A stretch of DNA of 64,000 nt from a virus (IMGVR_UViG_3300030019_000001), one strand, 5' to 3'; positions 35,131 to 61,605 are shown, counted from the stretch's first letter. Numbers and translations: made by a program. The notes: generated from the sequence alone by a model not told the origin.

Positions 35131-35886
35131 ATGCACAAAAATGAATTTAAAAAGTTTGCTACCAAACATTTAGGAATGAGTTCTACATTAGTAGATGATG
35201 CAACAAAATATCAAGCTGAAAATTATGGCTTATCTCCTCATGTTTTAGAAGAACGACAATTGAATGTAACTCAACTATCTGTGTTTGATAGACTTATGAT
35301 GGATAGAATTTTATGGGTGTCTGGTGACGTTGATGATACAATGTCTGATATTATTCAAGCACAATTATTATATTTAGAAGATTCTGATCCTCAAAAGGAC
35401 ATTACAATGCAAATTAATACAGGAGGCGGTAGTGTGACTCATGGGTTAGGAATCATAGATGTTATGAACTATATTAAACCTAATGTAGCCACAGTCAATT
35501 TAGGAATGTGCGCTTCAATGGGTAGTGTACTTCTATCATCTGGAGCAAAAGGTAAGCGTTCATCATTAATTAATTCAACAGTTATGCTACATCACGTTGC
35601 AGCAGGAACTAGTGGCAAAGTAGATGATACTCGTATTAGTCAAATGGAAACTGAAAAATACAATTTTTTACTATTCAAAATTCTTGCTCTTAATACTGAC
35701 AAGTCATTTGAAGAAATTCATGATTTTTGTCAAAGAGATATGTGGTTAAATTCTGATGAAGCTTTGAATTATGGTTTGATAGATAATGTCATTGGATTAG
35801 CTGATAATAAATCCAATTCAATTACAACTATGATGGATGGTTTTGATGAATATTATATGAAATATGTATTTAAACAAGTAAAATAA
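35131..35886 (+). CDS. clpP: ATP-dependent Clp protease proteolytic subunit
   Basis: DRLMMDRILWVSGDVDD...INTGGGSVTHGLGIIDVMNYIKPNVATVNLGMCASMGSVLL (catalytic Ser), MLHHVAAG (His) and the conserved C-terminal region align across the ClpP core. Confidence 0.85.
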   Translation: MHKNEFKKFATKHLGMSSTLVDDATKYQAENYGLSPHVLEERQLNVTQLSVFDRLMMDRILWVSGDVDDTMSDIIQAQLLYLEDSDPQKDITMQINTGGGSVTHGLGIIDVMNYIKPNVATVNLGMCASMGSVLLSSGAKGKRSSLINSTVMLHHVAAGTSGKVDDTRISQMETEKYNFLLFKILALNTDKSFEEIHDFCQRDMWLNSDEALNYGLIDNVIGLADNKSNSITTMMDGFDEYYMKYVFKQVK

Positions 35887-40653: not shown

Positions 40654-40899
40654 ATGACATCAAAAGATATTTACAATAGAATATTATTTATAGAAAATAG
40701 AATATTTGGTTTGAAGTTAAAGGTAAATAGAATATTTGGTTTGGAGTTAAAGGTAAATAGCCACTACATAAGTAACTCTGAATATATAGACACTATAAAT
40801 AGTAGAGCTGAGTTGAACAAGGAATTAACTATTTTAAAAAAAAAATTAAAATTGAATAATATAAGAAAAGAAAAATTACAAAATTTAAATAATATATGA
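40654..40899 (+). CDS. small protein with internal 30-bp tandem duplication and RKEKLQNLNNI tail
   Basis: NRIFGLKLKVNRIFGLELKV is encoded by the direct repeat at 40696-40760. Confidence 0.45.
   Translation: MTSKDIYNRILFIENRIFGLKLKVNRIFGLELKVNSHYISNSEYIDTINSRAELNKELTILKKKLKLNNIRKEKLQNLNNI
40696..40760 (+). repeat. 30-bp direct tandem repeat (2 copies) within a CDS
   Basis: aatagaatatttggtttg(a/g)agttaaaggta x2. Confidence 0.8.
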
Positions 40900-42000: not shown

Positions 42001-42080
42001 GCTCCTATGGTGGAATTGGTATACACGCATCACTTAAGATGATGTCCATTTGGATGAGGTTTCGAATACCTCTAGGAGTA
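42001..42080 (+). tRNA. tRNA-Leu (anticodon UAA), class II
   Basis: Acceptor GCTCCTA/TAGGAGT, 3-bp D stem GTG/CAC, anticodon stem CATCA/TGATG, loop CTTAAGA, variable hairpin TCCATTTGGA, T arm GAGGT-TTCGAAT-ACCTC. Confidence 0.7.
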
Positions 42081-42088
42081 CAAAATAT

Positions 42089-42175
42089 GCCGATGTGATG
42101 GAATCTTGGTAGACATTCAAAACTTAAAATTTTGCAAGCTATATGCTTATACGGGTTCAAGTCCCGTCATCGGTA
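42089..42175 (+). tRNA. tRNA-Leu (anticodon UAA), class II with long variable arm
   Basis: Acceptor GCCGATG/CATCGGT, anticodon stem CAAAA/TTTTG, loop CTTAAAA, T arm ACGGG-TTCAAGT-CCCGT. Confidence 0.6.
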
Positions 42176-42184
42176 CAAAAAATC

Positions 42185-42272
42185 GCTCCTGTGATGGAAT
42201 GGTAGACATCCATGTTTTAGAAACATGTGCTGAACAATAGTAGGCGTGTCGGTTCAAGTCCGACCAGGAGTA
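42185..42272 (+). tRNA. tRNA-Leu (anticodon UAG), class II
   Basis: Acceptor GCTCCTG/CAGGAGT, anticodon stem CATGT/ACATG, loop TTTAGAA, T arm GTCGG-TTCAAGT-CCGAC. Confidence 0.65.
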
Positions 42273-42376
42273 CAATATATTCAATGATTAATCATTATGA
42301 TACAATTTATTTAAAAATATGTTCAATTTTTATTCTTTTTGTCATAGAATTTTTTATATATAAAATAAAAAATAAT

Positions 42377-43474
42377 ATGACATATAGAGTATATGAAGTT
42401 AGTGAAATCATAAAAATAATAGAAGAATATAATAATGGATCAAAACAGTCAGAATTAAGTAAAAAATATAATATACCAAGAAGTAATATTAGATATTGGT
42501 TAAATAACAATGAAAAATTCAATCAATATAATAAATTAGAAAATCAAAAAAAATTAAAAAATAATTGTGATATTAATAATTATTTATCTGATAAAAAATT
42601 AGAATATAATTATATATTAGGATTATATTTAGGAGATGGTCATATAATAAAAACAAAAAGATCATCATATCAAATTCGAATATTTTTAGATAGTAAGTAT
42701 TATAATATAGTAACTGAATGTGAAAATAATTTAAAAATATTATTTCCATTTAATAAAATAAATATTCATAAAACTAAATATAATATGTTTATTGTTTCAG
42801 TATATTCCAACTCTTTAAAATATTTATTTCCTCAAATAGGAAAAGGAGTAAAGCACAAAAGAAAAATAATACTAGAAGATTTTCAAATAAAAAATATAAA
42901 TCACAAAAACATAATACGTGGATTGTTTCATTCAGATGGTTGCTTATATAAAAATACAATAATTAAAAAAGAAGGAAAAAAATATTTCGGTTATTATTAT
43001 AATTTTTCTAATATGTCTAAAGATATAGTAGATATTTATTGTAACTCACTTGATATTATAAATATTCATTATACTATACAAATAAGTAAAGATAACTGTT
43101 ATAGAATAAACGTAAATAGAAGAGTAGATTTCAAAAAAATGTATGAGTTTCTTGGTGTTAAAAATTTAAATATCAAAAGTGAAGTTGATGAATATTATTA
43201 TAATATAATTAGAAATGATAGAATAAAAAAATTAAAATCAGGTAAAAAAGAAATTAAAATAAACAATAATTTAATAAAAAATTATTGTGCATGTGGAAAA
43301 GAAATTAAACACAATTCTAAACAATGTTATGACTGCTACAGATTATCTGAAAGAAAAGTAAAGAACAGACCAACAAAAGATGAGTTAAGATTAATGATAT
43401 CTGATACAAGTTTAGAAGCTGTTGGTAGAGTTTATGGAGTAACTGGTAAAGCAGTTAAGAAGTGGTTAAAATAA
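42377..43474 (+). mobile_element. LAGLIDADG homing endonuclease (two-motif) with C-terminal Cys4 zinc ribbon and HTH DNA-binding module
   Basis: Motif 1 is YILGLYLGDGHI, and motif 2 is IRGLFHSDGCLY. CACGKE...CYDCY and RPTKDELRLMISDTSLEAVGRVYGVTGKAVKKWL form the HTH. The ORF-track start (42227) lies inside tRNA-Leu(UAG), so the likely start is the ATG at 42377 (or 42284). Confidence 0.6.
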
Positions 43475-43475
43475 T

Positions 43476-43548
43476 GGCTTGGTATCCCAACGGCAGAGGA
43501 CGGCGTTTCAAATGCGTTTCAGTGAGGGTTCGAATCCCTCTCAAGCTA
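43476..43548 (+). tRNA. tRNA, class I, anticodon uncertain (best fold gives CAA)
   Basis: Acceptor GGCTTGG/TCAAGCT and a clear T arm GAGGG-TTCGAAT-CCCTC. The anticodon stem is weak (GGCGT/GCGTT with G-U pairs). Confidence 0.5.
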
Positions 43549-44091
43549 CACATTAAATTTCTTTGATGCTATAATTGATTTCATATCATTTATATCGCTT
43601 GACCAATATTTCATTGAATCATCATCAGTTTGAACAATTCCTGTGCCATCGTGAGGACCAGGATTCATTTTTTTAACCTTATAATCAATTGAAGCCCATC
43701 TAAAATTTTCAACTCTTTCTTTCTTTATTACTTTACACAATTCCGTATTATCCCAACCAAGCAGACAATAATCTCCAACAGATGGCAGATTTTCCAGATC
43801 TTCAATTTTTTTAGAATAGCTTTTTATTTGTTCACGTTTAACTAAAAAATTATTATTCCACAATTCATATTTATCAAATTTAACGTTATAGTGTTCTGTA
43901 TGTTCATTATATCCAATTATTTTACCTATTCTATATTTATAGTCTGTGTCATTTTCTCTAGGTATAAAATATTCAGGTATTTTAGATTCATAGAAATCTT
44001 CATCAAGTCTAACGTAATCATTTATTTCTGGTTCTGAATCACGTGTAAATTCTTTGGTATCGTAGAATTCGAATTTTTTAATATGTATCAT
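43546..44091 (-). CDS. array A member (MIHIKKFEF... / ...ASKKFNV)
   Basis: 181 aa ORF with a 4-nt overlap to the upstream member. Confidence 0.5.
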   Translation of the reverse strand: MIHIKKFEFYDTKEFTRDSEPEINDYVRLDEDFYESKIPEYFIPRENDTDYKYRIGKIIGYNEHTEHYNVKFDKYELWNNNFLVKREQIKSYSKKIEDLENLPSVGDYCLLGWDNTELCKVIKKERVENFRWASIDYKVKKMNPGPHDGTGIVQTDDDSMKYWSSDINDMKSIIASKKFNV

Positions 44092-44462
44092 ATGTTAAAT
44101 TTTTTTGCGTATATTCTATATTGAATATTATCATATATATCATCAAATGGTATAACTAAAAAATTATCTATTGATAGCATATTTTGCATATAATCAATAT
44201 TATTACCCCATCCTCGTGTGGAAACAGCAATTATAAATATATGTGTATTATTTGGATAATTTGACACATCAACAATTATTGAATAAAAACCTTGTATTTT
44301 TACATCATTTCTTATAGTGTGTTCATCACTTTGACTTAGATTATATTTTTTGAGTTTATCAATAACTTGATCTGTTTGTTCATCTGTTATGCCTTTAATA
44401 TTTATTGCAAACCTGAATTTAGTTTTAGAACTTTCATTAATGAATTGATTATATTTTTTCAT
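44088..44462 (-). CDS. array A member (MKKYNQFINE... / ...YAKKFNI)
   Basis: Bounded by the conserved junction repeats. Confidence 0.5.
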   Translation of the reverse strand: MKKYNQFINESSKTKFRFAINIKGITDEQTDQVIDKLKKYNLSQSDEHTIRNDVKIQGFYSIIVDVSNYPNNTHIFIIAVSTRGWGNNIDYMQNMLSIDNFLVIPFDDIYDNIQYRIYAKKFNI

Positions 44463-44875
44463 ATGTTAAATTTTTTTGCATGTATTTTATATTGATAATC
44501 TTTCATTTCTTCGTCTGTTAGGTGTCTAACATATCCTGTTGGTACCCATCCTAAGAAATCATTATCTTCTATATCAGATAGTGAATTTCTTAATACATAC
44601 CCATAATACCATACATAATCAACTAGAACATATTCTTTACTATAATCATTATCAGTAAATTTGTCAGTCGTCTTTTTTTCATTATGTCTATTATATAATA
44701 CAGAGTCTAATTTTTCAATATATTCTTTATCTAATTTAACTATATCTCCATCATACACTCCAGTCTTAAATCCTGGTCTTTTTATGTAAAAAATAGGACC
44801 ATATGTTTCATCTTTTGTTGATTCTCTTTGCCATATATCTTTTGATTCATTAATGAATTGATTATATTTTTTCAT
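44459..44875 (-). CDS. array A member (MKKYNQFINE... / ...HAKKFNI)
   Basis: Bounded by the conserved junction repeats. Confidence 0.5.
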   Translation of the reverse strand: MKKYNQFINESKDIWQRESTKDETYGPIFYIKRPGFKTGVYDGDIVKLDKEYIEKLDSVLYNRHNEKKTTDKFTDNDYSKEYVLVDYVWYYGYVLRNSLSDIEDNDFLGWVPTGYVRHLTDEEMKDYQYKIHAKKFNI

Positions 44876-45237
44876 ATATTAAATTTATTTGTATTATTTC
44901 TTGCTTCAAGATATTCTACAATATCTTTAATTCCATTTGATCTAGCATTTAACAATTCTTCAGGTTTAATAATATTTATAATATAATCTTCATCATAACC
45001 CCAATCAGGTGTTGTAATACACCAAGTAGTTATTTTATTGTTACTTATATCTAAAACCAATGTATGAGGTTTATTACTATATGACGCATATTGACTTATA
45101 ATATCATAAATGTCAAAATATTTTTTGAATATTTCATTGAGCTTATATAAATCGTCATCTGTGATATTTTTAATATCTATTGAAACTTTAAATACATCAG
45201 AATTTTTTTCATTAATGAATTGGTTATATTTTTTCAT
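44872..45237 (-). CDS. array A member (MKKYNQFINE... / ...NTNKFNI)
   Basis: Bounded by the conserved junction repeats. Confidence 0.5.
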   Translation of the reverse strand: MKKYNQFINEKNSDVFKVSIDIKNITDDDLYKLNEIFKKYFDIYDIISQYASYSNKPHTLVLDISNNKITTWCITTPDWGYDEDYIINIIKPEELLNARSNGIKDIVEYLEARNNTNKFNI

Positions 45238-45665
45238 ATATTAAATTTATTTGCATCTTTTTTTACTTTATAAAGAGTTTCAACTCCTTTCAATCCAATT
45301 TTAATAAATTCATCTAATGAAATAATTAAATTATCACTACTACGAAGATCAGTAGATCTCATTTTAAAGAAATCAATTGTATCTCTTGGTATTCGTACAT
45401 TACCCCAACTCTCATATACATTAATATACCAAAGCCATTCAATTTCTGTATTTTTAAAATCATCAATATTTGATTTAGTTATTAATAAATTTTTTATATT
45501 ATGTGATTCTAAATTTACATATTTATTAAATTCTTCAAATGCTTTACTTTGGTTTTCTTCTGTCGCATTTTCTAATAATATAAAAAAATTAAAATTAAAA
45601 TCATTGGTTTTATTATCTTTACCGTATGCTCTATTTTCATTAATGAATTGATTATATTTTTTCAT
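45234..45665 (-). CDS. array A member (MKKYNQFINE... / ...DANKFNI)
   Basis: Bounded by the conserved junction repeats. Confidence 0.5.
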   Translation of the reverse strand: MKKYNQFINENRAYGKDNKTNDFNFNFFILLENATEENQSKAFEEFNKYVNLESHNIKNLLITKSNIDDFKNTEIEWLWYINVYESWGNVRIPRDTIDFFKMRSTDLRSSDNLIISLDEFIKIGLKGVETLYKVKKDANKFNI

Positions 45666-46129
45666 AAATTAAATTTTTCGGATTTTTTTATAGTTAGATA
45701 TTTTTGATATTGTTCTGGATATTCTTCAATTATATTAATCTTATTAATTGGTAGTAAATACGTCAAAAAATCATTACCCAAATTATCTTTTAAGTTCCAA
45801 TTAGCATTAGCTTCTATTAAAAATCTTACTATATCATTGTTTTCTCTTAATGTAGCATAATTTAATGCTGTTCTATTATAGATATCTTGATAGTTTATAT
45901 CAGCTCCTTTTCCTATTAAATACTTCACCACATCTATCCTATTGTTATCTGCTGCTAGTATTAATAGTGTATATCCATATTTATCTATATTATTCACATC
46001 ACCTTTTTCAACTTCTATATATTCTTGTACAACTTCTAAATCTCCTCTTCTACAAGCTTCAAATACACTATCATCACTATTAAAAAAGATATCAGAATAT
46101 CTATCTTCAAATTTTTTTATAAATTTCAT
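45662..46129 (-). CDS. ankyrin-repeat protein (MKFIKKFED... / ...KSEKFNL)
   Basis: GYTLLILAADNNRIDVVKYLIGKGADINYQD...TALNYA...NDIVRFLIEANAN. Confidence 0.6.
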   Translation of the reverse strand: MKFIKKFEDRYSDIFFNSDDSVFEACRRGDLEVVQEYIEVEKGDVNNIDKYGYTLLILAADNNRIDVVKYLIGKGADINYQDIYNRTALNYATLRENNDIVRFLIEANANWNLKDNLGNDFLTYLLPINKINIIEEYPEQYQKYLTIKKSEKFNL

Positions 46130-46743
46130 ACAGTAGTTTTATTTTTAAGTTTAGATATAGCTTTCTGAATTATATCAATTGTTAGATTATTAATTTCAAG
46201 AATATTAAAATCTCCTTCAATTTCTGTATTATGAGGGTGTTCAATTTTAATTGATACTTTACTTAATGGTTTACTTCCAATAACTTTTTGAGAATCATCT
46301 ATTAATATATCAGCATATTTCCATTTATCCATTGATGAATTAGCAAAAATGATGTCATCGTATTTAAATCCATAATGGTCTAACCATTTCTTAGCAGATT
46401 CTTTAGATTCTTCAGTAGGTTGTTTAGTTACTATGTTTAATTTGAAACCATGAGTTTTTATAAAATCATATATATTGTTTATAGTATCAACAGCACCTTT
46501 ATATGGTTGAGCAATATCAAAAACTTCAGATTTTTTATTATTAAACCATGTTTTTGATGATTCACCATTATAGTCCATTGTTTCATACCAATGCCAATTT
46601 TGATCCTGATTTATTTCTTTATCAGGAAAGTATCTTTTATATAGTGTATTGTATGCATTAACGAAATCACATATCGTACCATCAATATCTATTCCTATTG
46701 TAATTTTATTTGTAAATGTTTCAAACATTTTTATGTGTTTCAT
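46126..46743 (-). CDS. HAD-superfamily 5'(3')-deoxyribonucleotidase-like hydrolase
   Basis: N-terminal ITIGIDIDGTICDF is a DxDGT motif I. Embedded in array A with an MKHIKMFETF leader. Confidence 0.5.
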   Translation of the reverse strand: MKHIKMFETFTNKITIGIDIDGTICDFVNAYNTLYKRYFPDKEINQDQNWHWYETMDYNGESSKTWFNNKKSEVFDIAQPYKGAVDTINNIYDFIKTHGFKLNIVTKQPTEESKESAKKWLDHYGFKYDDIIFANSSMDKWKYADILIDDSQKVIGSKPLSKVSIKIEHPHNTEIEGDFNILEINNLTIDIIQKAISKLKNKTTV

Positions 46744-47009
46744 ATATTAAATTTATCTGTATTTTTTTTTAGTTTAACATATTGTTGTAATTTTCTTTTG
46801 TTATCTGAAAAATCTAATAGATAAGATTTATTTATATTAAGTCCTAGATTTGTTTCATATGAATCCCAATATATATTTATAATTTTATGAACTGTATAAT
46901 TGTATAGATTATTCATTTTTACATCATATGACATAGGACAGTCAAAAATTACATAATCACCTACTTTTGGTTCATCTTTTTTATTTTCAAATTTTTTTAT
47001 ATATTTCAA
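46740..47009 (-). CDS. array A member (MKYIKKFEN... / ...NTDKFNI)
   Basis: First gene of the minus-strand array. Confidence 0.5.
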   Translation of the reverse strand: MKYIKKFENKKDEPKVGDYVIFDCPMSYDVKMNNLYNYTVHKIINIYWDSYETNLGLNINKSYLLDFSDNKRKLQQYVKLKKNTDKFNI

Positions 47010-48565: not shown

Positions 48566-50377
48566 ATGAGCAAACAATTAATTAATATTGGCTCATCTCC
48601 AAACGATGGAACTGGAGATAATTTAAGAGAATCATTCATTAAAATAAATTCCAATTTTAATGATGTTTATTCTTTTACAGGATATACAGGTACTTCTGGA
48701 ACATCAGGAATAAACGGAACTAATGGCACATCAGGAATAAACGGAACTACAGGTACTTCTGGAACTTCAGGTTTAAATGGATCTTCAGGAGGAGCATCAG
48801 TAACTAATGTTACATATAGTGAATTATTAGATTTGATAAATACTTTATCATTAACTATTGGTACACAATATTTAATTACTGATTATAGTACAGTACATAT
48901 AATTCCATATACTAGTGATTTAAATTCAGGTATAACTGAACCATTATTAGTTACCGCAATTGGATTAGATAAATTGAAACCAGAAGCTCATTCTTATTTA
49001 TATTCACAAGATGTAATTTATTATAATTTTAATAATAATCAAACAGTTGTACCAGGATGCACAACTGGCTATATTTACAGAAGAATTGATACAATACAAA
49101 ATAACGATTTTCCTTTTGATTTTAGAAATGTTAAATTTAGAAGATGGCAAATTAATGTTACAAATATATGGAATTCAGGAACAACATACAATTCCAAAGA
49201 TGTTGTATTATTTTCTGAAACCAATCAAATTTATATTTGCATAAAAAATAATACAACAAATATAAATCCAAATAATAATGATGATTCAAATGGTATTTGG
49301 CAGTTATTTGAGTATTATAATCTATCTTATATAAGTTGTACTGAATATAATCTAATTTTTGGTGATATAACCATGCCATGTTCAACAGGATATACTGATA
49401 GTTATATGTGGAGTGATTTTGACTACTATTATTCAACATCATATTCAAATATAATTAATATATCTGAATTAAACTCAAATATAATAAATGGATCAAATAA
49501 TGTTATATTAGGTGTCAATTTCAGAGATAATAATATAAATGTGAATTTCTATAACAATACTATTGGTAATGATTTTAATAACAATACTATTGGTCGTAAT
49601 TTTATTGGTAATAGTATTAGTGATAATTTTAAAAACAATTTAATTGATGATAATTTTAAAAACAATTCTATTGGAGATACATTTCAGGCTAATTCTATTG
49701 GATATGAGTTTAAATATAACTCTATTGGTTCTGCTGGCTCATATAATAAAATTGGTAGAATATGTAATAATAACATTATTAGTACAGAATTCACTGGAAA
49801 TAATATAGGTGATAGATTCTATAATAATATGATTTGTAAATCTTTTTCTAGTAATACACTTGGTGATGACTGTTATAATAACGTTATCGATAGCAATTTT
49901 AATGCTAATGTCATTGGAAACAATTTCAACATTAATATTATAAATACAGAATTTACCCGTAATTCTATTGGAAATACGTTTCAGATTAATTCTATTGGAA
50001 TACAATTTTTATATAATAATATAGGAGATTTTTTTACAAATAATATAATTGCTGATCATTTCACGTCAAATAGTATAAATTCATCTTTCTCTAGTAATAA
50101 CATTTCCAATTTATTTACTTCAAATAACATAGGTAGTACATTTGATTCAAATATAGTAGGTATTGGATTTACAAATAATAGTATTGGAAATTCTTTTAGA
50201 ATAAATACAATTTCTGATTATTTTCAAATGAATAGTGTTTGTGATAATTTTGGAGGATTAGATTTTACATTAGCAAGTTACGTATATTTACCTTATACAA
50301 AAGAATTGTATGTTGATGATACAAATACTAAAAAATTACAATATAATAGAATGATAATTGTAGATGCAAATGCATAA
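48566..50377 (+). CDS. collagen-like (G-X-Y) plus nonapeptide beta-helix repeat protein; tail-fibre-like
   Basis: GTSGTSGINGTNGTSGINGTTGTSGTSGLNGSSGG triple-helix repeats, then ~25 copies of an xxNxIGxxF 9-residue repeat. Confidence 0.55.
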   Translation: MSKQLINIGSSPNDGTGDNLRESFIKINSNFNDVYSFTGYTGTSGTSGINGTNGTSGINGTTGTSGTSGLNGSSGGASVTNVTYSELLDLINTLSLTIGTQYLITDYSTVHIIPYTSDLNSGITEPLLVTAIGLDKLKPEAHSYLYSQDVIYYNFNNNQTVVPGCTTGYIYRRIDTIQNNDFPFDFRNVKFRRWQINVTNIWNSGTTYNSKDVVLFSETNQIYICIKNNTTNINPNNNDDSNGIWQLFEYYNLSYISCTEYNLIFGDITMPCSTGYTDSYMWSDFDYYYSTSYSNIINISELNSNIINGSNNVILGVNFRDNNINVNFYNNTIGNDFNNNTIGRNFIGNSISDNFKNNLIDDNFKNNSIGDTFQANSIGYEFKYNSIGSAGSYNKIGRICNNNIISTEFTGNNIGDRFYNNMICKSFSSNTLGDDCYNNVIDSNFNANVIGNNFNINIINTEFTRNSIGNTFQINSIGIQFLYNNIGDFFTNNIIADHFTSNSINSSFSSNNISNLFTSNNIGSTFDSNIVGIGFTNNSIGNSFRINTISDYFQMNSVCDNFGGLDFTLASYVYLPYTKELYVDDTNTKKLQYNRMIIVDANA

Positions 50378-50412
50378 AAAAATAGCAGATTAACAATCTG
50401 CTATTTTTTTAT
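50376..50412. terminator. bidirectional intrinsic terminator
   Basis: aaaaaa-atagcagatt-aaca-atctgctat-ttttttt. Confidence 0.8.
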
Positions 50413-50999
50413 AAATTAAATTTTTTAGAATCTCTATACAACGGGTCATATTCAGTTCTAATTTTATCATACTCACTTAAAGTTGTTTGCCATATATATT
50501 CAAAATTTTCAACATATTCAAATGTCATAGCCATGTTAATAAATACATCATGATCGTTTATACATTTTTTTATAAATAGTTTTCCTTTGCCAATAACTGA
50601 GCTTATCAAATCTGAATAACCGTCATCTGATGGCATAAAAATATTATATTTCTCATCTAGCCAAATTGGTTTAAAATAATTAAAAAGTTCTTTATACAAT
50701 TTTTCATATTCATCATAAAAACTCATAATAGTATCATATTCAAAATTTTTAAATACTCTTATTTTCAACTTGAAATTTTCTGTTTTATTCTTCTGTCCAA
50801 TATTATTTCTACTCTTAATAATTTTATTCCAATCAGAAATTTTTATAAATTTCCAAAAAACTTCACTATAATTATTAACATCAGGTTTAATAAATCTAAT
50901 ATATTCGCCATTATCATTCATTGATATCAGAGAATTGTTTTTATCATAATAATATGAGTTATTATCTGAGCCTTCAAAAATTTTAAAATTTGTTATCAT
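50409..50999 (-). CDS. array B member (MITNFKIFEG... / ...DSKKFNL)
   Basis: 196 aa ORF. Confidence 0.5.
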   Translation of the reverse strand: MITNFKIFEGSDNNSYYYDKNNSLISMNDNGEYIRFIKPDVNNYSEVFWKFIKISDWNKIIKSRNNIGQKNKTENFKLKIRVFKNFEYDTIMSFYDEYEKLYKELFNYFKPIWLDEKYNIFMPSDDGYSDLISSVIGKGKLFIKKCINDHDVFINMAMTFEYVENFEYIWQTTLSEYDKIRTEYDPLYRDSKKFNL

Positions 51000-51001
51000 G
51001 T

Positions 51002-52159
51002 TTACATATTAAATTTATCAGAATCTACAATAAACATATATTTATTGAATTCTTCTTTTATTTGTGAATCTAACCTAAAATTAGAGTTTAAGATATTTAA
51101 AGATTCAGCTATCAAATCACCTTTTTCATCTTCTGTGTCATCTTCATATCCATTTTCCTTTATATATTCTTCTATATATCTTTTTTGAAAATCATATTCA
51201 TCTGAAATATCATCATTGTGAGTTCTTTTTTCTTCAAATAGTTCAAATAATAACAACGTTAGATTATCGGAGTCACCTGAATTATCCATTAGGTAATGTT
51301 GTATTTCTATACTATTTCCAATTTGTGATTCTACCCAACCATATTTTGAAACAGTATCTGTATTTCTTTTATAATATTCAACAAGTTTATTCTCATCTAT
51401 ATATACACTATAATTGTTATAAAAACCATTTGGTGTAAAATTATCAATCAATTCAACATAACTATCTACTCCTGTTTTTTCTGACATAACCTCAATGAAA
51501 GTGAGATATTCATATCTTTTGGTAATAGTTTCTTCTATAAATTCACCTTCTTCTGATTCATCTGTTATAATCTCTTGTAATTGATCTGAATCTAAATCAT
51601 CTAACATATCAGAATCATATTTCAATTCATCATTTTTTGCAATAATAGAGTTGGAACTAATTTCATCTCCATCTTCAACTACAACTGTAAAGTTATCAGG
51701 AATAATATATTCCTCCTTAGAATTATCCTCAGCTATTATAATTTTTTTGATGTTATCTTCCTCAATAATTGATACAATACCGTCATATTCAGATTTTATA
51801 ATCATATCATCATCATCATTATTATCATAATAAGATTCTATTATCTTATTTTCTTTAACTGATGTTAAATGATTATTAATATATTCTTTATATTCATAAT
51901 CATAAAAATCTCCAATATTTAGTTCTTTGACAGTTGAGTTAATGATATCTTGTATGTATTTATTATTATCAAAAACACTAGAAATTAAATTTGGATCATA
52001 AGTTAATATTTCTACAATATCAGATTCTGTTGGATTATCTAAATAATGTTCATCATAATAAGCTGATATATATTCGTCATCTAAAAAGTCATGTGACAAA
52101 TCATGTTTTGCGCTATCTGAACTTTCAAACATTTTAAATTTTTTGAAATTTGTTATCAT
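51002..52159 (-). CDS. array B member, acidic (MITNFKKFKMFESSD... / ...DSDKFNM)
   Basis: 385 aa, D/E-rich. Confidence 0.5.
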   Translation of the reverse strand: MITNFKKFKMFESSDSAKHDLSHDFLDDEYISAYYDEHYLDNPTESDIVEILTYDPNLISSVFDNNKYIQDIINSTVKELNIGDFYDYEYKEYINNHLTSVKENKIIESYYDNNDDDDMIIKSEYDGIVSIIEEDNIKKIIIAEDNSKEEYIIPDNFTVVVEDGDEISSNSIIAKNDELKYDSDMLDDLDSDQLQEIITDESEEGEFIEETITKRYEYLTFIEVMSEKTGVDSYVELIDNFTPNGFYNNYSVYIDENKLVEYYKRNTDTVSKYGWVESQIGNSIEIQHYLMDNSGDSDNLTLLLFELFEEKRTHNDDISDEYDFQKRYIEEYIKENGYEDDTEDEKGDLIAESLNILNSNFRLDSQIKEEFNKYMFIVDSDKFNM

Positions 52160-52267
52160 ACTATTTGTTTTATTTTGCTATTTTTTGCTGTTTTAATGAC
52201 ATCTAATGTCATAAATTATATCATTCAATTGATTTATCAGTTATATTATTAAATCTATAAAAACTCA

Positions 52268-53089
52268 TTACAAATTGAATTTATTGGTGTCATTAATAAT
52301 TTTCCAATTATTATAATAATCATCACTTAATACATTTGAATATTTATCTAATATTTCATAAATACCGTCTATATCTATTTGACTACTTTCACCTAAATTA
52401 TTAATAGTAGAATTTCTATCATATAAAAAATCTAAATTTTTATCTTTATCAATATTTGGAGTATAATAAGCATCAAAAATGTCAGTATCAAAATGAATAG
52501 AATATGTCAATTTTTTAGTTTTTAAATTGTAATATTGATGTATCTTTAATATCCAAGCTAATTTATCATTGTTAATATTGAATTTATTAAAATTATATAC
52601 AATAGTATCAATGTGAAAATTTCTATCTAGTTCATAATATAAATTACCTGGATTTTTTAATAATTTATCAAAATCATTATTATATTTCATTTTTACTACA
52701 ATATCATTAAAATATTTTGATATATTTTCATCTTTATTGATGTGTGAATTTATATCATACAATTTAGAAAAATAAAGAATTTTTTCTATTTCAGATATTT
52801 CTGATTCGAATTTTTTTAATATTCTAATATTCTCTTCTTTTTTGAATTTTTCACGACCTATTTTTTTGATATGTCTTTTTAGTTCTTTTTCTTTTTCTTC
52901 TAATCTTTTTCTATTTTCAGGATCATAATCTTGATATTTTTCTTTTGCAACATCAAGTCCTTTATTACCAATCAAATTCAAAAATTTAGTATATAAATCT
53001 GAATTCTCTTTTTTTACGTTATCTAAAAACTTGGCATTTTCTTTGTCTTGTAATATATCAAACACTTTAAATTCAAATATCTTTCTCAT
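52268..53089 (-). CDS. array B member (MRKIFEFKVFD... / ...DTNKFNL)
   Basis: 273 aa ORF. Confidence 0.5.
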   Translation of the reverse strand: MRKIFEFKVFDILQDKENAKFLDNVKKENSDLYTKFLNLIGNKGLDVAKEKYQDYDPENRKRLEEKEKELKRHIKKIGREKFKKEENIRILKKFESEISEIEKILYFSKLYDINSHINKDENISKYFNDIVVKMKYNNDFDKLLKNPGNLYYELDRNFHIDTIVYNFNKFNINNDKLAWILKIHQYYNLKTKKLTYSIHFDTDIFDAYYTPNIDKDKNLDFLYDRNSTINNLGESSQIDIDGIYEILDKYSNVLSDDYYNNWKIINDTNKFNL

Positions 53090-53092
53090 TCA

Positions 53093-53443
53093 TTATATAT
53101 TATATTTGTGTGTGTCATTTGTAAATTCTGGAACATAAAAATAATCTAGAAAATTTGGCAACTCATTGTAATTATTATTAATGTCAAATTCTTGCATTTT
53201 TTTAGTATCATCAAAAAACATAATAACTTTATTCATACATTCAATAGGCAAATAATTATTTATATTATATTTTTCAATTGATTTTTCAGCATCACCATAA
53301 AATCCAGCTACCTTATAACTATTTCCTTTTTTAAAAATTACATTTCTATCTTTATATTTCTTGTGATAATTTTTTATACACATCACATAATCATCAATCA
53401 TTCTTAAATCTGGATTTTTATATGCTTCAAATATTGTTATCAT
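53093..53443 (-). CDS. array B member (MITIFEAYKNPD... / ...DTHKYNI)
   Basis: 116 aa ORF. Confidence 0.5.
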   Translation of the reverse strand: MITIFEAYKNPDLRMIDDYVMCIKNYHKKYKDRNVIFKKGNSYKVAGFYGDAEKSIEKYNINNYLPIECMNKVIMFFDDTKKMQEFDINNNYNELPNFLDYFYVPEFTNDTHKYNI

Positions 53444-53445
53444 AA

Positions 53446-53811
53446 TTAATTGTCTTTATTATTTATAGTTTCTATTTTATTAATAGTGTAATTGATTAAT
53501 TCTTCATTTGATTTAAATTCAATAAATGCCATTGGCTCATCTTTTATGTTGAAATTTTTAATTTTTATTATCCATTCATCATAATTCAATCCTATAAAAT
53601 TATAAATATTTTTTATACTTACAATTATATCATTAGATATTAAATTAAAGCAAACATAAAATATTGCTTGCCTATCTTGATATTCATATTCTATTACTAT
53701 ACTATCAAATTCATCATTCTCAGTAAAAAACATTTCTACTAAATAATTACTTAATATTTTAGCTCTAGATTGAAGTTTAGAAATATTACAATTAAATTCA
53801 TCAATATTCAT
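53446..53811 (-). CDS. array B member (MNIDEFNCNIS...)
   Basis: 121 aa ORF with a TAATG overlap to the upstream gene. Confidence 0.45.
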   Translation of the reverse strand: MNIDEFNCNISKLQSRAKILSNYLVEMFFTENDEFDSIVIEYEYQDRQAIFYVCFNLISNDIIVSIKNIYNFIGLNYDEWIIKIKNFNIKDEPMAFIEFKSNEELINYTINKIETINNKDN

Positions 53812-54152
53812 TACACATTAAATTTATTTGTATCTAAATATAAACTATATGCATTTTTTGCAGCTTCAATAGTATCATAAGATGATATAACATAAACCTC
53901 ATTAATAGTTAATATATCAGTAGATTTAATATCGAAATGAAATTCTTTTACATCCCATATATAAAAATCAAGATCAACACGATTAAGATCATTTATATTA
54001 TTAAATTTTGCAAGATAAAAATCTTTTTGATATCTAAATATTACAAATTTACCATAATATTTTTTATAATCTAATTTTTTATCAATCATATTTTTGTTGA
54101 TTTTTTTTATAGAATCTTCAATAGCATTTTCAAAATTTTTAATGTATTTCAT
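53811..54152 (-). CDS. array B member (MKYIKNFENAIED... / ...DTNKFNV)
   Basis: 113 aa ORF. Confidence 0.5.
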   Translation of the reverse strand: MKYIKNFENAIEDSIKKINKNMIDKKLDYKKYYGKFVIFRYQKDFYLAKFNNINDLNRVDLDFYIWDVKEFHFDIKSTDILTINEVYVISSYDTIEAAKNAYSLYLDTNKFNV

Positions 54153-54230
54153 TTAATATAGATATTTTCAATATATATAAAATAATAATTATAAAAACTT
54201 TTCTTGCTATTTTTTATATAAAAATAAAAA

Positions 54231-54485
54231 ATGCAAACATTAGTATTCAACACAACAGATAAAACCACAAATTTATATGATGGAATATCAATAGAAGACG
54301 GAATTATAATATCAGAATATTCTTTTGATGATGTTAGTACAGTCTCTGTAAGAGAAGGCTATTATGAGATTATGAAAATGTATGAAATTAACACTAGAAC
54401 CAAAGGTAAAATTGTTACCATTCCTGTTGCAAGATTTCCTATTTCTCAAACTAATATGATAATTATAAACAAAAAAAATATATAA
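54231..54485 (+). CDS. hypothetical protein
   Basis: 84 aa ORF. Confidence 0.4.
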   Translation: MQTLVFNTTDKTTNLYDGISIEDGIIISEYSFDDVSTVSVREGYYEIMKMYEINTRTKGKIVTIPVARFPISQTNMIIINKKNI

Positions 54486-54624
54486 TATTGTTATATGTTG
54501 AATTTTTCTGTTGAATTAAGAATATCTATATCTTTTTTATTTTTACTTTTCTAACTATCATAAACTAATATAGTATCTTATCTGCTTATATTATTTGATT
54601 CAAAATATTTAAAATATATCATAA

Positions 54625-55209
54625 TTAAACATTAAATTTACTTATATCAATTCTCAAGTCTGAATTTTCCTTATATTTTGGAAATTTGTTAGTTACATAT
54701 TTTTCTATCTCATCTATATAATCATCTTTGTGACTATTAAATTTCTTAAAATCTAATAAACAATCATAGAAATTTTCACCATCACTATTTTTAATATCAA
54801 GATCTAATCCAGCTTTTAAAAATTTTTCTAATAACATAATAAATGTACCAGCATCATAGAAATAAGATAGATATTTTATTATAGCTGTTTCTCCGTTTAT
54901 ATCTTGAATATTCACATCAGCCTTTGCATTTAACAATTTGTTAATTACTATTGGAGTTGAAGCCATCATCAATGCTGTATTTTTATTCTTGTCTGTTTCA
55001 TTAACATCAGCGTCGCCTTCTATTAAAGCATCGACAACAAATGGAAATTTAATAGCGTGCATCAATGCTGTTTTACCATCAGAGTCTTTCATATTAACAT
55101 CAACTCCTTCTTTTATCGCTTGTTTTACTACACTAGTACTTCCTCTTTTTGCAGATGATATAAATGGTGGTTCCTTTACTGATCTTTCAAATAATCTTAA
55201 ATATTTCAT
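54625..55209 (-). CDS. ankyrin-repeat protein (MKYLRLFERSVKE... / ...DISKFNV)
   Basis: GKTALMHAIKF...VVDALIEGDADVNETDKNKNTALMMA...LLNAKADVNIQDINGETAI. Confidence 0.6.
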   Translation of the reverse strand: MKYLRLFERSVKEPPFISSAKRGSTSVVKQAIKEGVDVNMKDSDGKTALMHAIKFPFVVDALIEGDADVNETDKNKNTALMMASTPIVINKLLNAKADVNIQDINGETAIIKYLSYFYDAGTFIMLLEKFLKAGLDLDIKNSDGENFYDCLLDFKKFNSHKDDYIDEIEKYVTNKFPKYKENSDLRIDISKFNV

Positions 55210-55279: not shown

Positions 55280-55816
55280 ATGAAATATTTAAAGCAATAC
55301 GAAGCATACATTGAGATGTATTTAGATGATGATGATCAATTAACATTAATGAAAGAATATCTTGATAATGAAGATTTATCAAAAATAAATAAAATATTAA
55401 ATAGTGGATTTGATCCTAATACAAAATATGGAATTCATCCTGTAATATACGATCTTCAAGATAAAAATAAGGACAAATCAAATTCTAATATATTAAAATC
55501 ATTTATTGAACATGGACTAGATAATAAAATCATTACAATTTTTTTATATAATGAATTAAATTGGACTAGATATGCAGTAGATAAATTAAATCTATTAGAA
55601 ATATCTAAAATTTGTATTAAGTCTGGAGCAGATTTATTTTATGATTATGGTTTGTATAGTGATTTTTTTGATATGATCGAAAAAAAGAAAACAACATTTA
55701 AATCATTATTCACAGAAAAATTTGTGAATGATTTAATGAGTATCATTAAAGAAGAAGCTTCAGAGCAATATGACAAATATATAATACAAAAAAACTCAAA
55801 AAAATTTAACATATGA
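55280..55816 (+). CDS. ankyrin-like protein (MKYLKQYEAYIEMY... / ...NSKKFNI)
   Basis: Paralog of 55813..56361. Confidence 0.5.
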   Translation: MKYLKQYEAYIEMYLDDDDQLTLMKEYLDNEDLSKINKILNSGFDPNTKYGIHPVIYDLQDKNKDKSNSNILKSFIEHGLDNKIITIFLYNELNWTRYAVDKLNLLEISKICIKSGADLFYDYGLYSDFFDMIEKKKTTFKSLFTEKFVNDLMSIIKEEASEQYDKYIIQKNSKKFNI

Positions 55817-56361
55817 AATATTTAAAAACCTATGAAAAAATGATGACATTAGAGTTAGATATTGATGATCAAGAAGAATTGATGACAAAAGCATTAGAAT
55901 ATAATAAAATTAATCTAGTAAAAGGACTTCTTGATAATGGATTTGACCCAAATTATATTGTAACACACTATGGTGTACCTCTATTACTTTATCAATTATC
56001 TGATAACACAACAAAATTGGATATTGATATATTAAAATTATTAATAGACAAAGGAGCCGATGTTAATCTTATGATAAATGGATCACCTTTAATCTCTGGT
56101 GCAATAACTTTATATCACAGAAAAAGTACAGATAAAGAATATAGAGATAAATATTTAGAAGCTATCAGATTATTTATTAAATCTGGCGCAGATTTAACAG
56201 CAAGAGACGATGAAAAAGAAAATTCATTTGATACAATTCAAAATATGATAGATTATGGATATTTTAAACCTATTTTTACAAAAAGATTATTGAAGATTAT
56301 TGAAGAAGAAGCACCAGAACAATATGGAATTTACATAACATCTAAAAAGTATAATATATAA
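55813..56361 (+). CDS. ankyrin-repeat protein (MKYLKTYEKMMTLE... / ...TSKKYNI)
   Basis: LVKGLLDNGFDPNY...LLIDKGADVNLMINGSPLISGAI. ATATGA overlap with the previous gene. Confidence 0.55.
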   Translation: MKYLKTYEKMMTLELDIDDQEELMTKALEYNKINLVKGLLDNGFDPNYIVTHYGVPLLLYQLSDNTTKLDIDILKLLIDKGADVNLMINGSPLISGAITLYHRKSTDKEYRDKYLEAIRLFIKSGADLTARDDEKENSFDTIQNMIDYGYFKPIFTKRLLKIIEEEAPEQYGIYITSKKYNI

Positions 56362-56395
56362 AAAAAAATCCTGATTTCTCAGGATTTTTTTTATT
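56360..56395. terminator. bidirectional intrinsic terminator
   Basis: aaaaaaaa-atcctga-tttc-tcaggat-tttttttt. Confidence 0.8.
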
Positions 56396-57857
56396 TATCG
56401 ATAAATAACTTATTATCAGGGGGCCAATGTATATGTGGCGCTTCCATTGTGTCAGTAATTACCCACAATATTTTTTCAAAGTATTTAGGAATACCATATT
56501 TAAATTTGTCTGGTACTGTACCTGCTGCATCTGTAAAATATATTACAAACGAAGGAATAGTTCCTTTTTGTATTAGATTCTTTTCAATCCATTGGAAAGG
56601 TGGAACAAAACTTGTACCTCCACCACCTTTTGCTTTGAAGTGTCTACCAAGAATTTCCTTAAATTTACCTTCATTCATTGAATCTCCGCTCTTTGTTCTA
56701 AGATTAATTCTTTCTATTCCTTTCACTTCATCATCACACCATATAATTATAGCTTCTTCAATTTTCTTTGAACCAAAAATACCATAAATTTCAGATGCAA
56801 ATCTACCAAGTGTTTCATCTCCAATTGATCCTGATGTATCAATACACAAAACTATTGTTCTGAATCCACTATCTTTAGGATATTTCAATCCTGGTAAATA
56901 CAATGGATCATCTTGTCCAATAAATCTTTTATTAAAATAACCATATTTAGGATTACTTGAAAAACATTTATTCATAAATTTAACTAATGATGCTTTCCAA
57001 TTGACTTTTGGTTTTCCAATTTTGTTAAACCATCTATTCAATGATTGAGATCCAGTTCCTTGATTATTACTTTTTGCATTATTTAATATTTCTCCCCATT
57101 TTTTTGCTAAATCTTCTGGACTTTCCATTTTGCTTAATTCATCACTACCATCGAATAATGTTGCACCTTTTTTATCATTTAAACTACCTGGAGCACACAA
57201 ATCACCTGCACCTGGAATTGAACTACCTGGCTTTCCTTGACCCTGCCCTGGTTTACCTTGTCCTGGTTTACCCTGACCTTCACCTTCTCCATCACCTTCT
57301 CCATCACCTTCTCCTTTTTTCTTTGGTTTCGCTTGCTCTTCTTTTTCAAGAATTACATAGATTTGCTCTGCACTCATATCACGATATTTTTCATCTAATA
57401 GAATATTTGTTGGTACTCTTAATATATCAGGTTTACTTGTTGCACCGTCAGGAGTTTCTTTACTCATATCAGATATTTGAAGATTAATTGCATAATCTGC
57501 TGCTTGATTCCATAAATCATGATTTCTGTTACCTTGTCTCATAAAGTGAAGATTTGCATTGTGCATAACTTCGTGTATCAAAACAAATGCTACTTCCTCT
57601 GTGTTTTTTAATACATTGTTAACAAATTCAGGATTATATAAAATATTTTGCCCATCAGTAGCCATAGTATTTATACCACTTCCTGGTGATGCTTCTGCAA
57701 TATTTAATTGAAAGAACAAATCTGCAAAGAAATTATAGTAAGCCATAACAGATGTTAAAGCTGCTCTTACTTTACCTTTAGCCATTTTGTTTAATTTTGG
57801 ATCAGTAAAATCTTCATTTATACCCAAAAAACTAAATGTATTGAATTTTTTTATCAT
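56391..57857 (-). CDS. VWA-domain protein with N-terminal HExxH metallopeptidase-like domain (MoxR-associated, DUF2201-like)
   Basis: FVLIHEVMHNANLHF carries HExxH. MIDAS motif IVLCIDTSGSIGDE. A low-complexity GEGDGEGDGEGEGQGKPGQGKPG linker separates the two. Confidence 0.65.
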   Translation of the reverse strand: MIKKFNTFSFLGINEDFTDPKLNKMAKGKVRAALTSVMAYYNFFADLFFQLNIAEASPGSGINTMATDGQNILYNPEFVNNVLKNTEEVAFVLIHEVMHNANLHFMRQGNRNHDLWNQAADYAINLQISDMSKETPDGATSKPDILRVPTNILLDEKYRDMSAEQIYVILEKEEQAKPKKKGEGDGEGDGEGEGQGKPGQGKPGQGQGKPGSSIPGAGDLCAPGSLNDKKGATLFDGSDELSKMESPEDLAKKWGEILNNAKSNNQGTGSQSLNRWFNKIGKPKVNWKASLVKFMNKCFSSNPKYGYFNKRFIGQDDPLYLPGLKYPKDSGFRTIVLCIDTSGSIGDETLGRFASEIYGIFGSKKIEEAIIIWCDDEVKGIERINLRTKSGDSMNEGKFKEILGRHFKAKGGGGTSFVPPFQWIEKNLIQKGTIPSFVIYFTDAAGTVPDKFKYGIPKYFEKILWVITDTMEAPHIHWPPDNKLFIDK

Positions 57858-57879
57858 TTTTATTTTTTATTTTTATTAA

Positions 57880-59415: not shown

Positions 59416-59447
59416 CTTATTATATTTTATTTTTATTATATATATTT

Positions 59448-60872: not shown

Positions 60873-60945
60873 TCTACGAAATTATTTTTGTTTTTATATA
60901 TAAAAATTTATATTTCCTTTTTTAATAAAAATGAATAAATTTTAA

Positions 60946-61605
60946 TTATCTATTATAATGCTTACACTCAGATGAATATTTTGCTTGTCTCCATCTAATA
61001 TCATTCATTGTACCCCATGCTGTTTTACTCGATCCACCTTGAATTTGTGGACGACTACCTGAAGATATTTTTTCTGCTTTTTCTTTTGCATTCATTAAAT
61101 GCCATAATTTTTCTCTATCTGATACATTTTCAGATCCTGAATATTGTTCAATAGGAATTAACTCTTCTAAATCAAAATCAATATCAGAATTATAATAATT
61201 ATCAACATCCTCACTATATTCAGTTTTCATTATTTCTCCATTTTTTCTAACAACTTCTATTTTCCAGCCATTATTAAAAATTTTAATATTTAATTCATTC
61301 TCAATTTTTTTAATAATAGATTTAAATAATAATATGTTAGGATATGTCCAAAATGATATTATCTTATTATTAGTCCATAATCTACCAGGATAACATGGAT
61401 TATCTATTTCATGCCCAGCATTATAATGAGAATCAGTAAAATCTCCAAAATATACATTTATAACATTTGTGTGATTATCATTCACATCACAATAAAAAGG
61501 TTTAGAATCAGAATCATCCATATCACACAACTTATCACCATTCTTATCTCGTACATAACTTGGATTTTCTTTTAATAGTTTAAAATTTTCAAATTTTTTA
61601 ATCAT
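60946..61605 (-). CDS. hypothetical protein (MIKKFENFKLLKE leader)
   Basis: 219 aa, directly upstream of the MoxR pair. Confidence 0.5.
   Translation of the reverse strand: MIKKFENFKLLKENPSYVRDKNGDKLCDMDDSDSKPFYCDVNDNHTNVINVYFGDFTDSHYNAGHEIDNPCYPGRLWTNNKIISFWTYPNILLFKSIIKKIENELNIKIFNNGWKIEVVRKNGEIMKTEYSEDVDNYYNSDIDFDLEELIPIEQYSGSENVSDREKLWHLMNAKEKAEKISSGSRPQIQGGSSKTAWGTMNDIRWRQAKYSSECKHYNR

Follow-up and report, generated by a model that had tools for sequence, protein, structure and literature searches.

Terminal peptide tags and a coding junction repeat in a tandem array of gene cassettes from a megaphage

A tandem array of eight small open reading frames (ORFs) was identified at positions 43546-47009 of a 64,000-nucleotide stretch of viral DNA (IMGVR_UViG_3300030019_000001), the whole of which is referred to here as the window. 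The genes of the array all lie on the minus strand and are read from 47009 to 43546 in the order o1-HAD-Ank-A-B-C-D-E. This arrangement, first described in an earlier sequence-only reading of the same DNA, was borne out, and a 4-nt ATGA overlap was found at all seven gene boundaries. The window has a guanine-plus-cytosine (GC) content of 24%, and its source is a megaphage of about 711 kb; array protein D occurs unchanged on a contig of 711,471 bp. The same array is present on 20 contigs from independent samples and assemblers (JGI and ENA assemblies), so it is not an assembly artefact.

Two short peptides recur at the ends of the encoded proteins. The C-terminal tag (C-tag) is K-[F/Y]-N-[I/L/V/M] at the C-terminus, and the N-terminal tag (N-tag) is a leader of one of two types, MKKYNQFINE or MK-x-[I/L]-K-x-[F/Y]-E. 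At a boundary between two tagged genes, the C-tag codons, the overlapping stop and start and the N-tag codons together form a junction repeat of about 40 bp. The 41-mer given in the sequence-only reading has four copies in the window with 0-1 mismatch, against 0 expected from 100 shuffles, a likeness beyond that of AT-rich composition. The description of nearly identical DNA at every boundary is true of four of the seven junctions, those with the full 41-nt repeat. At o1/HAD and D/E only the upstream half, AAATTTAAYATATGA, is in common and a different leader follows (MKHIKMFE and MIHIKKFE, respectively), and the HAD/Ank junction (46126-46129), the one without any repeat, shares only ATGA and the second leader type. 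The repeats were also found to lie about 8-10 nt away from the positions first proposed (Table 1). The array and its repeat are genuine but were overstated.

Table 1. Cassettes of the array, junction repeats and other tagged genes of the window
Feature	Coordinates	Strand	Description
Cassette o1	46740-47009	-	89 aa, TTG start; opens the operon; small PKVGDYVI domain between N-tag MKYIKKFE and C-tag DKFNI
HAD (NT5C/HAD 5'-deoxynucleotidase)	46126-46743	-	205 aa; N-tag MKHIKMFE, no C-tag
Ank (ankyrin-repeat cassette)	45662-46129	-	155 aa; N-tag MKFIKKFE, C-tag EKFNL
Cassette A	45234-45665	-	143 aa; 'WG' family; leader MKKYNQFINE, C-tag NKFNI
Cassette B	44872-45237	-	121 aa; WG-family paralogue; absent in relative S1, different paralogue in its slot in relative R
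Cassette C	44459-44875	-	138 aa; non-WG body, leader and C-tag as in the WG cassettes; S1 and the distant relative T have orthologues
Cassette D	44088-44462	-	124 aa; WG-family paralogue
Cassette E	43546-44091	-	181 aa; closes the operon; N-tag MIHIKKFE; C-tag KKFNV before a TAG stop codon
Junction Ank/A, full repeat	45636-45676	-	C-tag codons, ATGA and leader codons; 1 mismatch
Junction A/B, full repeat	45208-45248	-	left breakpoint of the cassette B indel
Junction B/C, full repeat	44846-44886	-	right breakpoint of the cassette B indel
Junction C/D, full repeat	44433-44473	-
Junction o1/HAD, half repeat	46740-46755	-	C-tag codons AAATTTAATATA and TGA, overlapping the ATG of the HAD gene
Junction D/E, half repeat	44088-44103	-	AAATTTAACATA and TGA, overlapping the ATG of E
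Second tagged set	50409-55209	-	54625-55209 (ankyrin), 53811-54152, 53093-53443, 52268-53089, 51002-52159 and 50409-50999, all ending K[FY]N[ILVM]
Tagged pair on the opposite strand	55280-56361	+	ATGA overlap; 55280-55816 ends KKFNI; 55813-56361 (ankyrin) ends KKYNI
Isolated C-tagged gene	29075-29401	+	ends KKFNL; far from the array

Composition predicts 0.03 ORFs ending in the C-tag, and the window has 16 among its 110 ORFs, on both strands; inside the proteins of the window the motif K[FY]N[ILVM] is not enriched (9 occurrences against 5 expected). An N-tag-like start is also present on 13 of the 16 C-tagged ORFs (Fisher p = 5e-10). Outside the array, C-tags are carried by dispersed genes and by genes at operon ends. 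The leader MKKYNQFINE is found on the WG cassettes and on the unrelated cassette C, whereas MK-x-[IL]-K-x-[FY]-E is found on ankyrin, NT5C, SH3-like and orphan bodies. Ankyrin matches above the Pfam gathering score were obtained for 45662-46129, 54625-55209 and 55813-56361.

One HAD nucleotidase and one ankyrin protein had been recognized in the array by the sequence-only reading, and Pfam agrees on both. The NT5C gene matches PF06941 (47.0 bits against a gathering cut-off of 24.8, E = 3.4e-12), and the Ank cassette matches ankyrin families at E values of 1e-15 to about 1e-19. As the PF06941 match begins at residue 13, the N-tag of the NT5C enzyme is an add-on of 12 residues. A single-sequence AlphaFold2 (AF2) model of the ankyrin cassette (predicted local distance difference test score, pLDDT, of 55) is too poor to place the tags. 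Searches of Pfam and PHROGs with o1, A, B, C, D and E gave no family match. Body profiles were built from database homologues only, with the termini removed, and were run with hmmsearch. The profile of the D subfamily detected B at 1.6e-10 and that of the T subfamily detected A at 2.9e-8 and D at 4.2e-8, whereas the termini-stripped WG profiles never linked C, E, o1, Ank or HAD (E at least 0.0076). The bodies had been called unrelated or only weakly related, which is correct for C, E, o1, HAD and Ank and incorrect for the paralogues A, B and D. Database members of the WG family number 27, every one from this phage group; the C-terminal 30 or so residues of the family can be aligned, and E10 of the leader is invariant. 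The AF2 model of cassette A reached a pLDDT of 85 and a predicted template modelling score (pTM) of 0.81, and the WG-family model had no match among solved folds or viral predicted folds.

IMG/VR was scanned with a degenerate junction pattern (C-tag, ATGA and N-tag), and all counts derived from the scan refer to the matches listed; because the loci were picked by this pattern, frequencies taken from them are inflated, a point against the interpretation offered below. The tagged stretches recovered by this search for the junction in other genomes number at least 117, on contigs of up to 330 kb and with arrays of as many as 9 junctions. At least 415 distinct C-tagged ORFs were obtained from the viral loci. 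Their N-terminal consensus is M-K-Y-I-K-K/T-F-E, with E8 present in 71%, and their C-terminal consensus of about 12 residues is [L/Y]-E-[L/I]-x-[I/L/K]-x-[A/T/S]-[N/K]-K-[F/Y]-N-[I/L]. When ORFs were chosen by the N-tag alone, 221 of 257 (86%) carried the C-tag. After removal of the tags, the bodies of 406 proteins formed 170 clusters, of which 130 were singletons; the recognized families were ankyrin and leucine-rich repeat (LRR) proteins. The prokaryotic scan (596 Gb, 185,579 species genomes) gave only two matches to the junction pattern, one in a Flavobacteriales and one in a Promethearchaeota metagenome-assembled genome, neither at an ORF junction. Assignment of a host through the pattern was dropped, as these two are chance matches only. 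The tags mark at least 415 otherwise mostly unrelated proteins across a megaphage clade and are virus-specific, and no description of them was found in the literature. Given this spread to dispersed genes, both strands, operon ends and positions before TAA or TAG, the view of the junction as primarily a fixed DNA module local to the array is not supported.

The N-tag extends further than the C-tag. In L149 (LR756502.1 335000-384999), a locus of a distant 642-kb megaphage with 31% GC, N-tag-like starts such as MKHLKKFN, MKYIKTFEN, MIKLKTYEEF and MSIKKFENFE are present on at least 9 of 74 ORFs, and none of the 74 has a K[FY]N[IL] C-terminus. N-tags without C-tags suggest that the N-tag is the older and more widespread of the two.

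Cassette turnover was followed in relatives recovered through the NT5C gene as anchor, with NT5C identities of 94% (S1), 88% (R) and about 61% (L013 and L015), and in a relative (T) recovered through a homologue 50% identical to cassette D. NT5C is the conserved anchor gene, being present in T as well as in every relative that it served to recover. The cassette order is o1-HAD-Ank-A-C in S1, HAD-Ank-A-X-Y(decayed)-D-E(split) in R, and three SH3-like genes-HAD-three WG paralogues-LRR-C in T, and other small tagged genes lie around HAD in L013 and L015. The o1 orthologue of S1 (L005 7735-8004) has an ATG start, and o1 is absent in R. Cassette E and tRNA-Leu(caa) are convergent; S1 lacks this cassette, and R has it in a split or decayed form. 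The locus is thus polymorphic, the number and identity of its genes differing among the window, S1, R, T, L013 and L015, and gene content is not strictly conserved. The window and S1 are colinear to 45208 and again from 44891, with 46 bp shared. In a three-way alignment S1 has a single chimeric junction with A-end and C-start flanks, and cassette B is absent exactly between two repeats. Both the differing sets and this indel agree with the proposal, already made in the sequence-only reading, that the genes are cassettes and the junctions recombination breakpoints. Cassette X of R was considered as a D/A chimera and rejected, its A-like tail being the ancestral C-terminus of the WG family. Elsewhere in the window an untagged ORF of 121 aa without a family match (53446-53811, minus strand) lies exactly at the junction of two tagged genes; in R (L004 798-801) these neighbours meet directly in an ATGA overlap, without an inserted ORF.

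The tags appear to be conserved as peptides. In the clade as a whole the C-tag is encoded by varying codons (TTT, TTC or TAT; AAT or AAC; ATA, TTA or CTA) while its residues stay, which indicates a constraint at the level of the protein. Of the C-tagged ORFs, 52% overlap the next gene by ATGA, whereas 42% of the tagged ORFs in the IMG/VR loci end in TAA or TAG outside such an overlap, and at least 84 of 404 have a convergent gene or a gap of more than 60 nt downstream. Judged from the codons, much of the nucleotide identity of the junctions is peptide identity combined with extreme codon bias. The four local 41-nt copies nevertheless show about 1.0 synonymous difference per pair against about 3.6 expected from codon usage, and the rare codon TTC (17% usage) is present in all four. 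At the Asn of the tag, AAC is used in about 40% of cases (IMG/VR loci L032-L148) against 13% genome-wide, an excess of about threefold. An AAC codon at this site puts a C at -3 of the overlapping start, making CATATG.

The F/Y variant of the C-tag is near-uniform per locus, with 38 loci at 80% KFN or more, 11 at 20% or less and 6 mixed; orthologous cassettes end in KFNI in the window and in KYNL in relative T. In the same way, the four MKKYNQFINE leaders of the window are identical, whereas orthologous leaders in relatives read MKKYKEFINE or MKSFDQYINE. Lineage-specific F/Y choice together with locally identical leaders suggests a shared trans-acting partner or gene conversion, and both may hold. 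The identity of the leaders of A, B, D and the unrelated C is probably the result of concerted evolution. A structural clasp between the two tags was also considered and rejected: F/Y at N-tag position 7 and C-tag position -3 gave an odds ratio of 2 (p = 0.02), probably a lineage effect, and I/L gave none.

The NAD ligase of the window is closest (42% identity) to those of uncultured phages of 635-642 kb, and a T4 gp9/10-like baseplate domain is also encoded. A nucleotide search with the array against 50,697 GenBank phages returned a tRNA-Leu match only, so there is no annotated close relative in that set. A Shine-Dalgarno-like 4-mer was found upstream of 1 of 107 window genes. Upstream regions are 55-73% A; over positions -20 to -2 the share of A is 44-73% and that of G 1-9%, and 80% of the genes have A at position +4. 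An A-rich upstream pattern lacking Shine-Dalgarno sites is typical of Bacteroidota-type initiation, and the pattern seen here hints at Shine-Dalgarno-independent initiation and a Bacteroidota host. The junction RNA is unstructured (minimum free energy of -1 to -8 kcal/mol, z-scores of -0.8 to +1.4). Translational coupling, as the sequence-only reading proposed, is plausible given the ATGA at all seven boundaries, the scarcity of Shine-Dalgarno-like sites and the open junction RNA, and reinitiation would be its presumed step. A programmed frameshift or polyprotein at the junction was dropped, since no in-frame slippery heptamer was seen on reading the sequence by eye.

We consider it likely that the array is a translationally coupled cassette operon belonging to a clade-wide superfamily defined by its tags, in which the tags act as address labels and the junctions as recombination joints. 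On this interpretation, the array would be a coupled operon of accessory-gene cassettes in a megaphage of about 711 kb with 24% GC and no Shine-Dalgarno signals. Membership of the superfamily would be defined by the terminal tags and not by the body: an N-tag of the form M-K-[Y/H]-[I/L]-K-x-[F/Y]-E or MKKY-x-QFINE, and a C-tag of roughly phi-E-phi-x-phi-x-[A/T/S]-[N/K]-K-[F/Y]-N-[I/L]-COOH, appear to have been joined to independent bodies (ankyrin, LRR, small SH3-like, NT5C with the N-tag only, and many orphans). The junction repeats would be substrates of unequal homologous recombination by which whole in-frame cassettes are deleted, as observed for B, and presumably also duplicated or replaced. 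At the open junction, built of A and U only, a ribosome would end at UGA and restart at the overlapping AUG. The tags are most likely address labels for one trans-acting phage component, a conjecture drawn from the lineage-wide F/Y switch. The conjectured fate that we prefer, by analogy with the leader of the T4 internal proteins, is packaging in the prohead followed by ejection into the host cell; the function of the tags is suggested by sequence and by this analogy.

A broader form of the proposal can be put forward only tentatively. A clade of megaphages of about 0.3-0.7 Mb might possess a genome-wide two-ended address code on more than 10% of the proteome, ankyrin, LRR and hundreds of orphan domains included, with one co-evolving reader and a single fate (capsid loading of effectors or proteolysis). 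The code would double as a recombination and coupling joint through which a body of any kind could be inserted, duplicated or lost in frame. Huge phages carry orphan genes by the hundreds. A sequence rule consisting of an 8-10-residue start and a 4-12-residue end picks out a large, fast-turnover subset of them that is rich in protein-binding repeats, which would give a handle on candidate host-manipulation or anti-defence effectors. The KFN/KYN lineage switch predicts a single reader protein that should be findable by covariation. One coding repeat may thereby perform three jobs, as address label, ribosome restart and in-frame recombination joint. If the tags do load capsids, they would provide a portable packaging signal for engineering.

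Several observations weigh against parts of this interpretation. The only protease found in the 64-kb window is of the ClpP type and not of the T4 gp21 type. The 415 tagged proteins are mostly acidic to neutral (median isoelectric point of 5.9), and those of the array range from 4.8 to 9.2. About 15% of the window genes are tagged, which is many for virion cargo, and N-tag-like starts are also present on the NT5C enzyme, on AAA ATPases and on a DUF2201 protein. AF2 puts leader residues 7-14 in a beta-strand of the fold, with low confidence (pLDDT of 56). The likeness of MKKYNQFINE to the T4 leader MKTYQEFIAE (6/10 positions) could be chance in a proteome rich in K, N, I, Y and F. The excess of AAC at the tag Asn points to some selection at the RNA or DNA level as well. 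The case for junction recombination consists of one clean indel and differences of content, and in an overlapping array any viable whole-gene indel must fall at gene boundaries.

A serious rival to packaging, although in our judgement an unlikely one, is that the tags serve as degrons, or as docking motifs, recognized by a protease or AAA+ machine (the phage ClpP-like protein with AAA ATPases, or host ClpXP). They would then serve the timed turnover of early accessory proteins, or the ankyrin and LRR bodies would deliver host targets for degradation in the manner of the ankyrin-PRANC proteins of poxviruses. The window encodes a ClpP-family protease (35131-35886, plus strand; PF00574) as well as two AAA ATPases with a DUF2201/VWA partner (56391-60872), and the bodies are protein-binding repeats. 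The lineage-wide F/Y switch fits one reader for this role too, and acidic proteins fit poorly with DNA-associated virion cargo. However, PHROGs places the ClpP-like protein among the head-maturation proteases (phrog_94, 'head maturation protease', E = 7.6e-35), and no ClpX-like unfoldase or adaptor was identified in the window. In favour of a degron, the C-tag, basic and then hydrophobic, may be loosely like the ClpX C-motif-2. The identity of the 35131-35886 product, as a prohead or a degradative ClpP, bears on the role of the tags.

Somewhat less probable still is the original model in its pure form, in which the junction is a DNA or RNA module for recombination and reinitiation and the encoded peptide is functionless, the termini hitch-hiking. 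It would account for the junction-bounded indel of B, the ATGA overlaps of half of the C-tagged ORFs, the AAC excess at -3 of the next start and the low synonymous divergence of the four local copies, and a gene lacking a Shine-Dalgarno site would need A/U-rich sequence upstream. It does not account for residues that are kept while their codons vary, with conservative substitutions (F/Y and I/L/V/M), nor for a tag that is kept before TAA or TAG, at operon ends, on isolated genes and on both strands. Moreover, A-richness would favour K and N codons, not a fixed K-[FY]-N-[IL], and N-tags are frequent in the distant megaphage, in which the C-tag is absent.

It is very improbable that all eight ORFs are diverged tandem duplicates of one gene with the ends as its slowest-evolving parts. 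A, B and D are true paralogues, and the C-terminal residues of their family can be aligned as this would require, but the NT5C, ankyrin and LRR bodies are of independent, recognizable origin, the body-only profiles leave C, E, o1, Ank and HAD unlinked to the WG family, and 130 of the 170 body clusters are singletons. A by-product of AT-rich composition or of repeat mis-assembly, which the low GC content and tag residues all drawn from A/U-only codons might have suggested, is refuted by the shuffles, by the two chance matches in the prokaryotic scan against at least 117 viral stretches, and by the identical array on 20 contigs.

Other genes of the window carry related features. Two long tagged ORFs of the second set, 51002-52159 and 52268-53089 (minus strand; 385 and 273 aa, respectively), have internal matches to the N-tag-bearing starts of other cassettes, and residues 88-206 of the latter align with the start of 53811-54152; both ORFs may be fusions of former cassettes. 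The block at 56391-61605 (minus strand) encodes a DUF2201 metallopeptidase/VWA protein, two AAA (MoxR-like) ATPases and a 219-aa ORF, all with N-tag-like starts (MIKKFNTF, MIKKYDSY, MKTLKNYDHF and MIKKFENF) and none with a C-tag. At 21319-22176 (plus strand), four MKYKVGD(I/V)V paralogues of 67-81 aa are arranged in tandem with 11-nt overlaps, in which the upstream C-terminus (...L-x-E-I stop) and the next MKYK start share the same bases; similar small ORFs are present at L149 10948-11199. Tails resembling ...KL..LNEI are found on window ORFs 23126-23389, 26108-26362 and 40654-40899.

The genes flanking the array also vary among relatives. The 603-aa product of 48566-50377 (plus strand) combines an N-terminal domain like that of T4 gp9/10 with a short collagen-like G-T-S-G run and an extended series of N-x-I-G-x-x-F repeats of about 11 residues; its counterparts have 686 aa in R (L004) and 601 aa in S1 (L005). 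A tRNA-Leu cluster lies at 42001-43549 of the window, at L005 9965-10417, L009 12303-12756 and L013 11625-13034. Five contiguous tRNA-Leu genes (anticodons tag, caa, aag, taa and taa) are present in S1, R and L015. In the window, where only four tRNAs were called, an ORF for a LAGLIDADG homing endonuclease (42227/42284-43474) lies between two tRNA-Leu genes. In R an HNH-like ORF is located between the tRNA-Leu cluster and the array, with a C-terminal DNA-binding tail (...RPTKDELRLMISDTSLEAVGRVYGVTG...KKWLK) as in the LAGLIDADG ORF, and in L013 an endonuclease-like ORF lies inside the cluster.

Several known systems resemble the array in part. The ankyrin-PRANC/F-box families of poxviruses combine a variable binding domain with a conserved terminal adaptor and have undergone a large expansion. 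The likeness is conceptual, ankyrin or LRR bodies carrying a short conserved element at the end and having multiplied in a giant viral genome; the tags described here are of about 8-12 residues, are present at both ends and have no known partner. Integron cassettes differ in that attC sites are imperfect inverted repeats folding into hairpins, whereas the junctions lack hairpin potential, the comparison covering the repeats but no search for an integrase. Coupled overlapping operons of the Bacteroidota type share the 4-nt stop/start overlap, the A-rich and G-poor upstream sequence and the unstructured RNA, but in ordinary coupled operons unrelated genes do not share a conserved, position-specific peptide to either side of the overlap.

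A comparison with the PeSLs (promoter early stem-loops) of T4-type hyperplastic regions had been drawn in the sequence-only reading and applies in part. Recombination of flanking repeats that removes an ORF and leaves one chimeric repeat is the excision topology of ORFan192 in RB49 against phi1 (PMC2839356), and cassette B in the window against S1 shows the same. PeSLs, however, are non-coding elements of about 100 bp with a sigma-70 promoter and a terminator hairpin, whereas the repeat here is wholly coding. The defining parts were not found: a scan of the array gave no terminators and no stem-loops, and 36 sigma-70-like promoter sites against 46.8 expected.

The closest analogue, closer than PeSLs, would be the internal-protein (Ip) loci of T4. 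The T4 internal proteins are unrelated save for their leader, are injected, act as anti-restriction factors and are encoded at a genomic hotspot (PMC12373910, PMC3012670), and the capsid-targeting leader MKTYQEFIAE, which brings them into the prohead and is then cleaved off, has been described (PMC8442874). The conserved leader region has been proposed to mediate shuffling at the Ip locus (PMC8442874, PMC12373910, PMC3012670; Repoila et al. 1994, as cited in PMC12373910). The two systems share an N-terminal leader of about 10 residues common to otherwise unrelated small proteins, and a hotspot at which gene number and identity vary between related phages. MKKYNQFINE shares 6/10 positions with the T4 leader, and its last three residues, I-x-E, resemble the T4 cleavage site. 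I-N-E, of the form of the gp21 site (L/I)-x-E, is present in four of the eight array proteins, whereas the commoner tag ends in [FY]-E without L/I at P3; both N-tag types end in a conserved Glu (E10 and E8, respectively). In contrast to the T4 loci, a second tag is present at the C-terminus, the genes overlap without intergenic promoter blocks, and the clade has hundreds of tagged genes, which account for about 15% of the window. The T4 Ip proteins are highly basic and DNA-associated, whereas the tagged proteins are not basic; packaging and ejection, established for the former, would be conjecture for the latter. In the array described here, the ideas developed for the T4 Ip locus and for PeSLs would be extended to a much larger scale.

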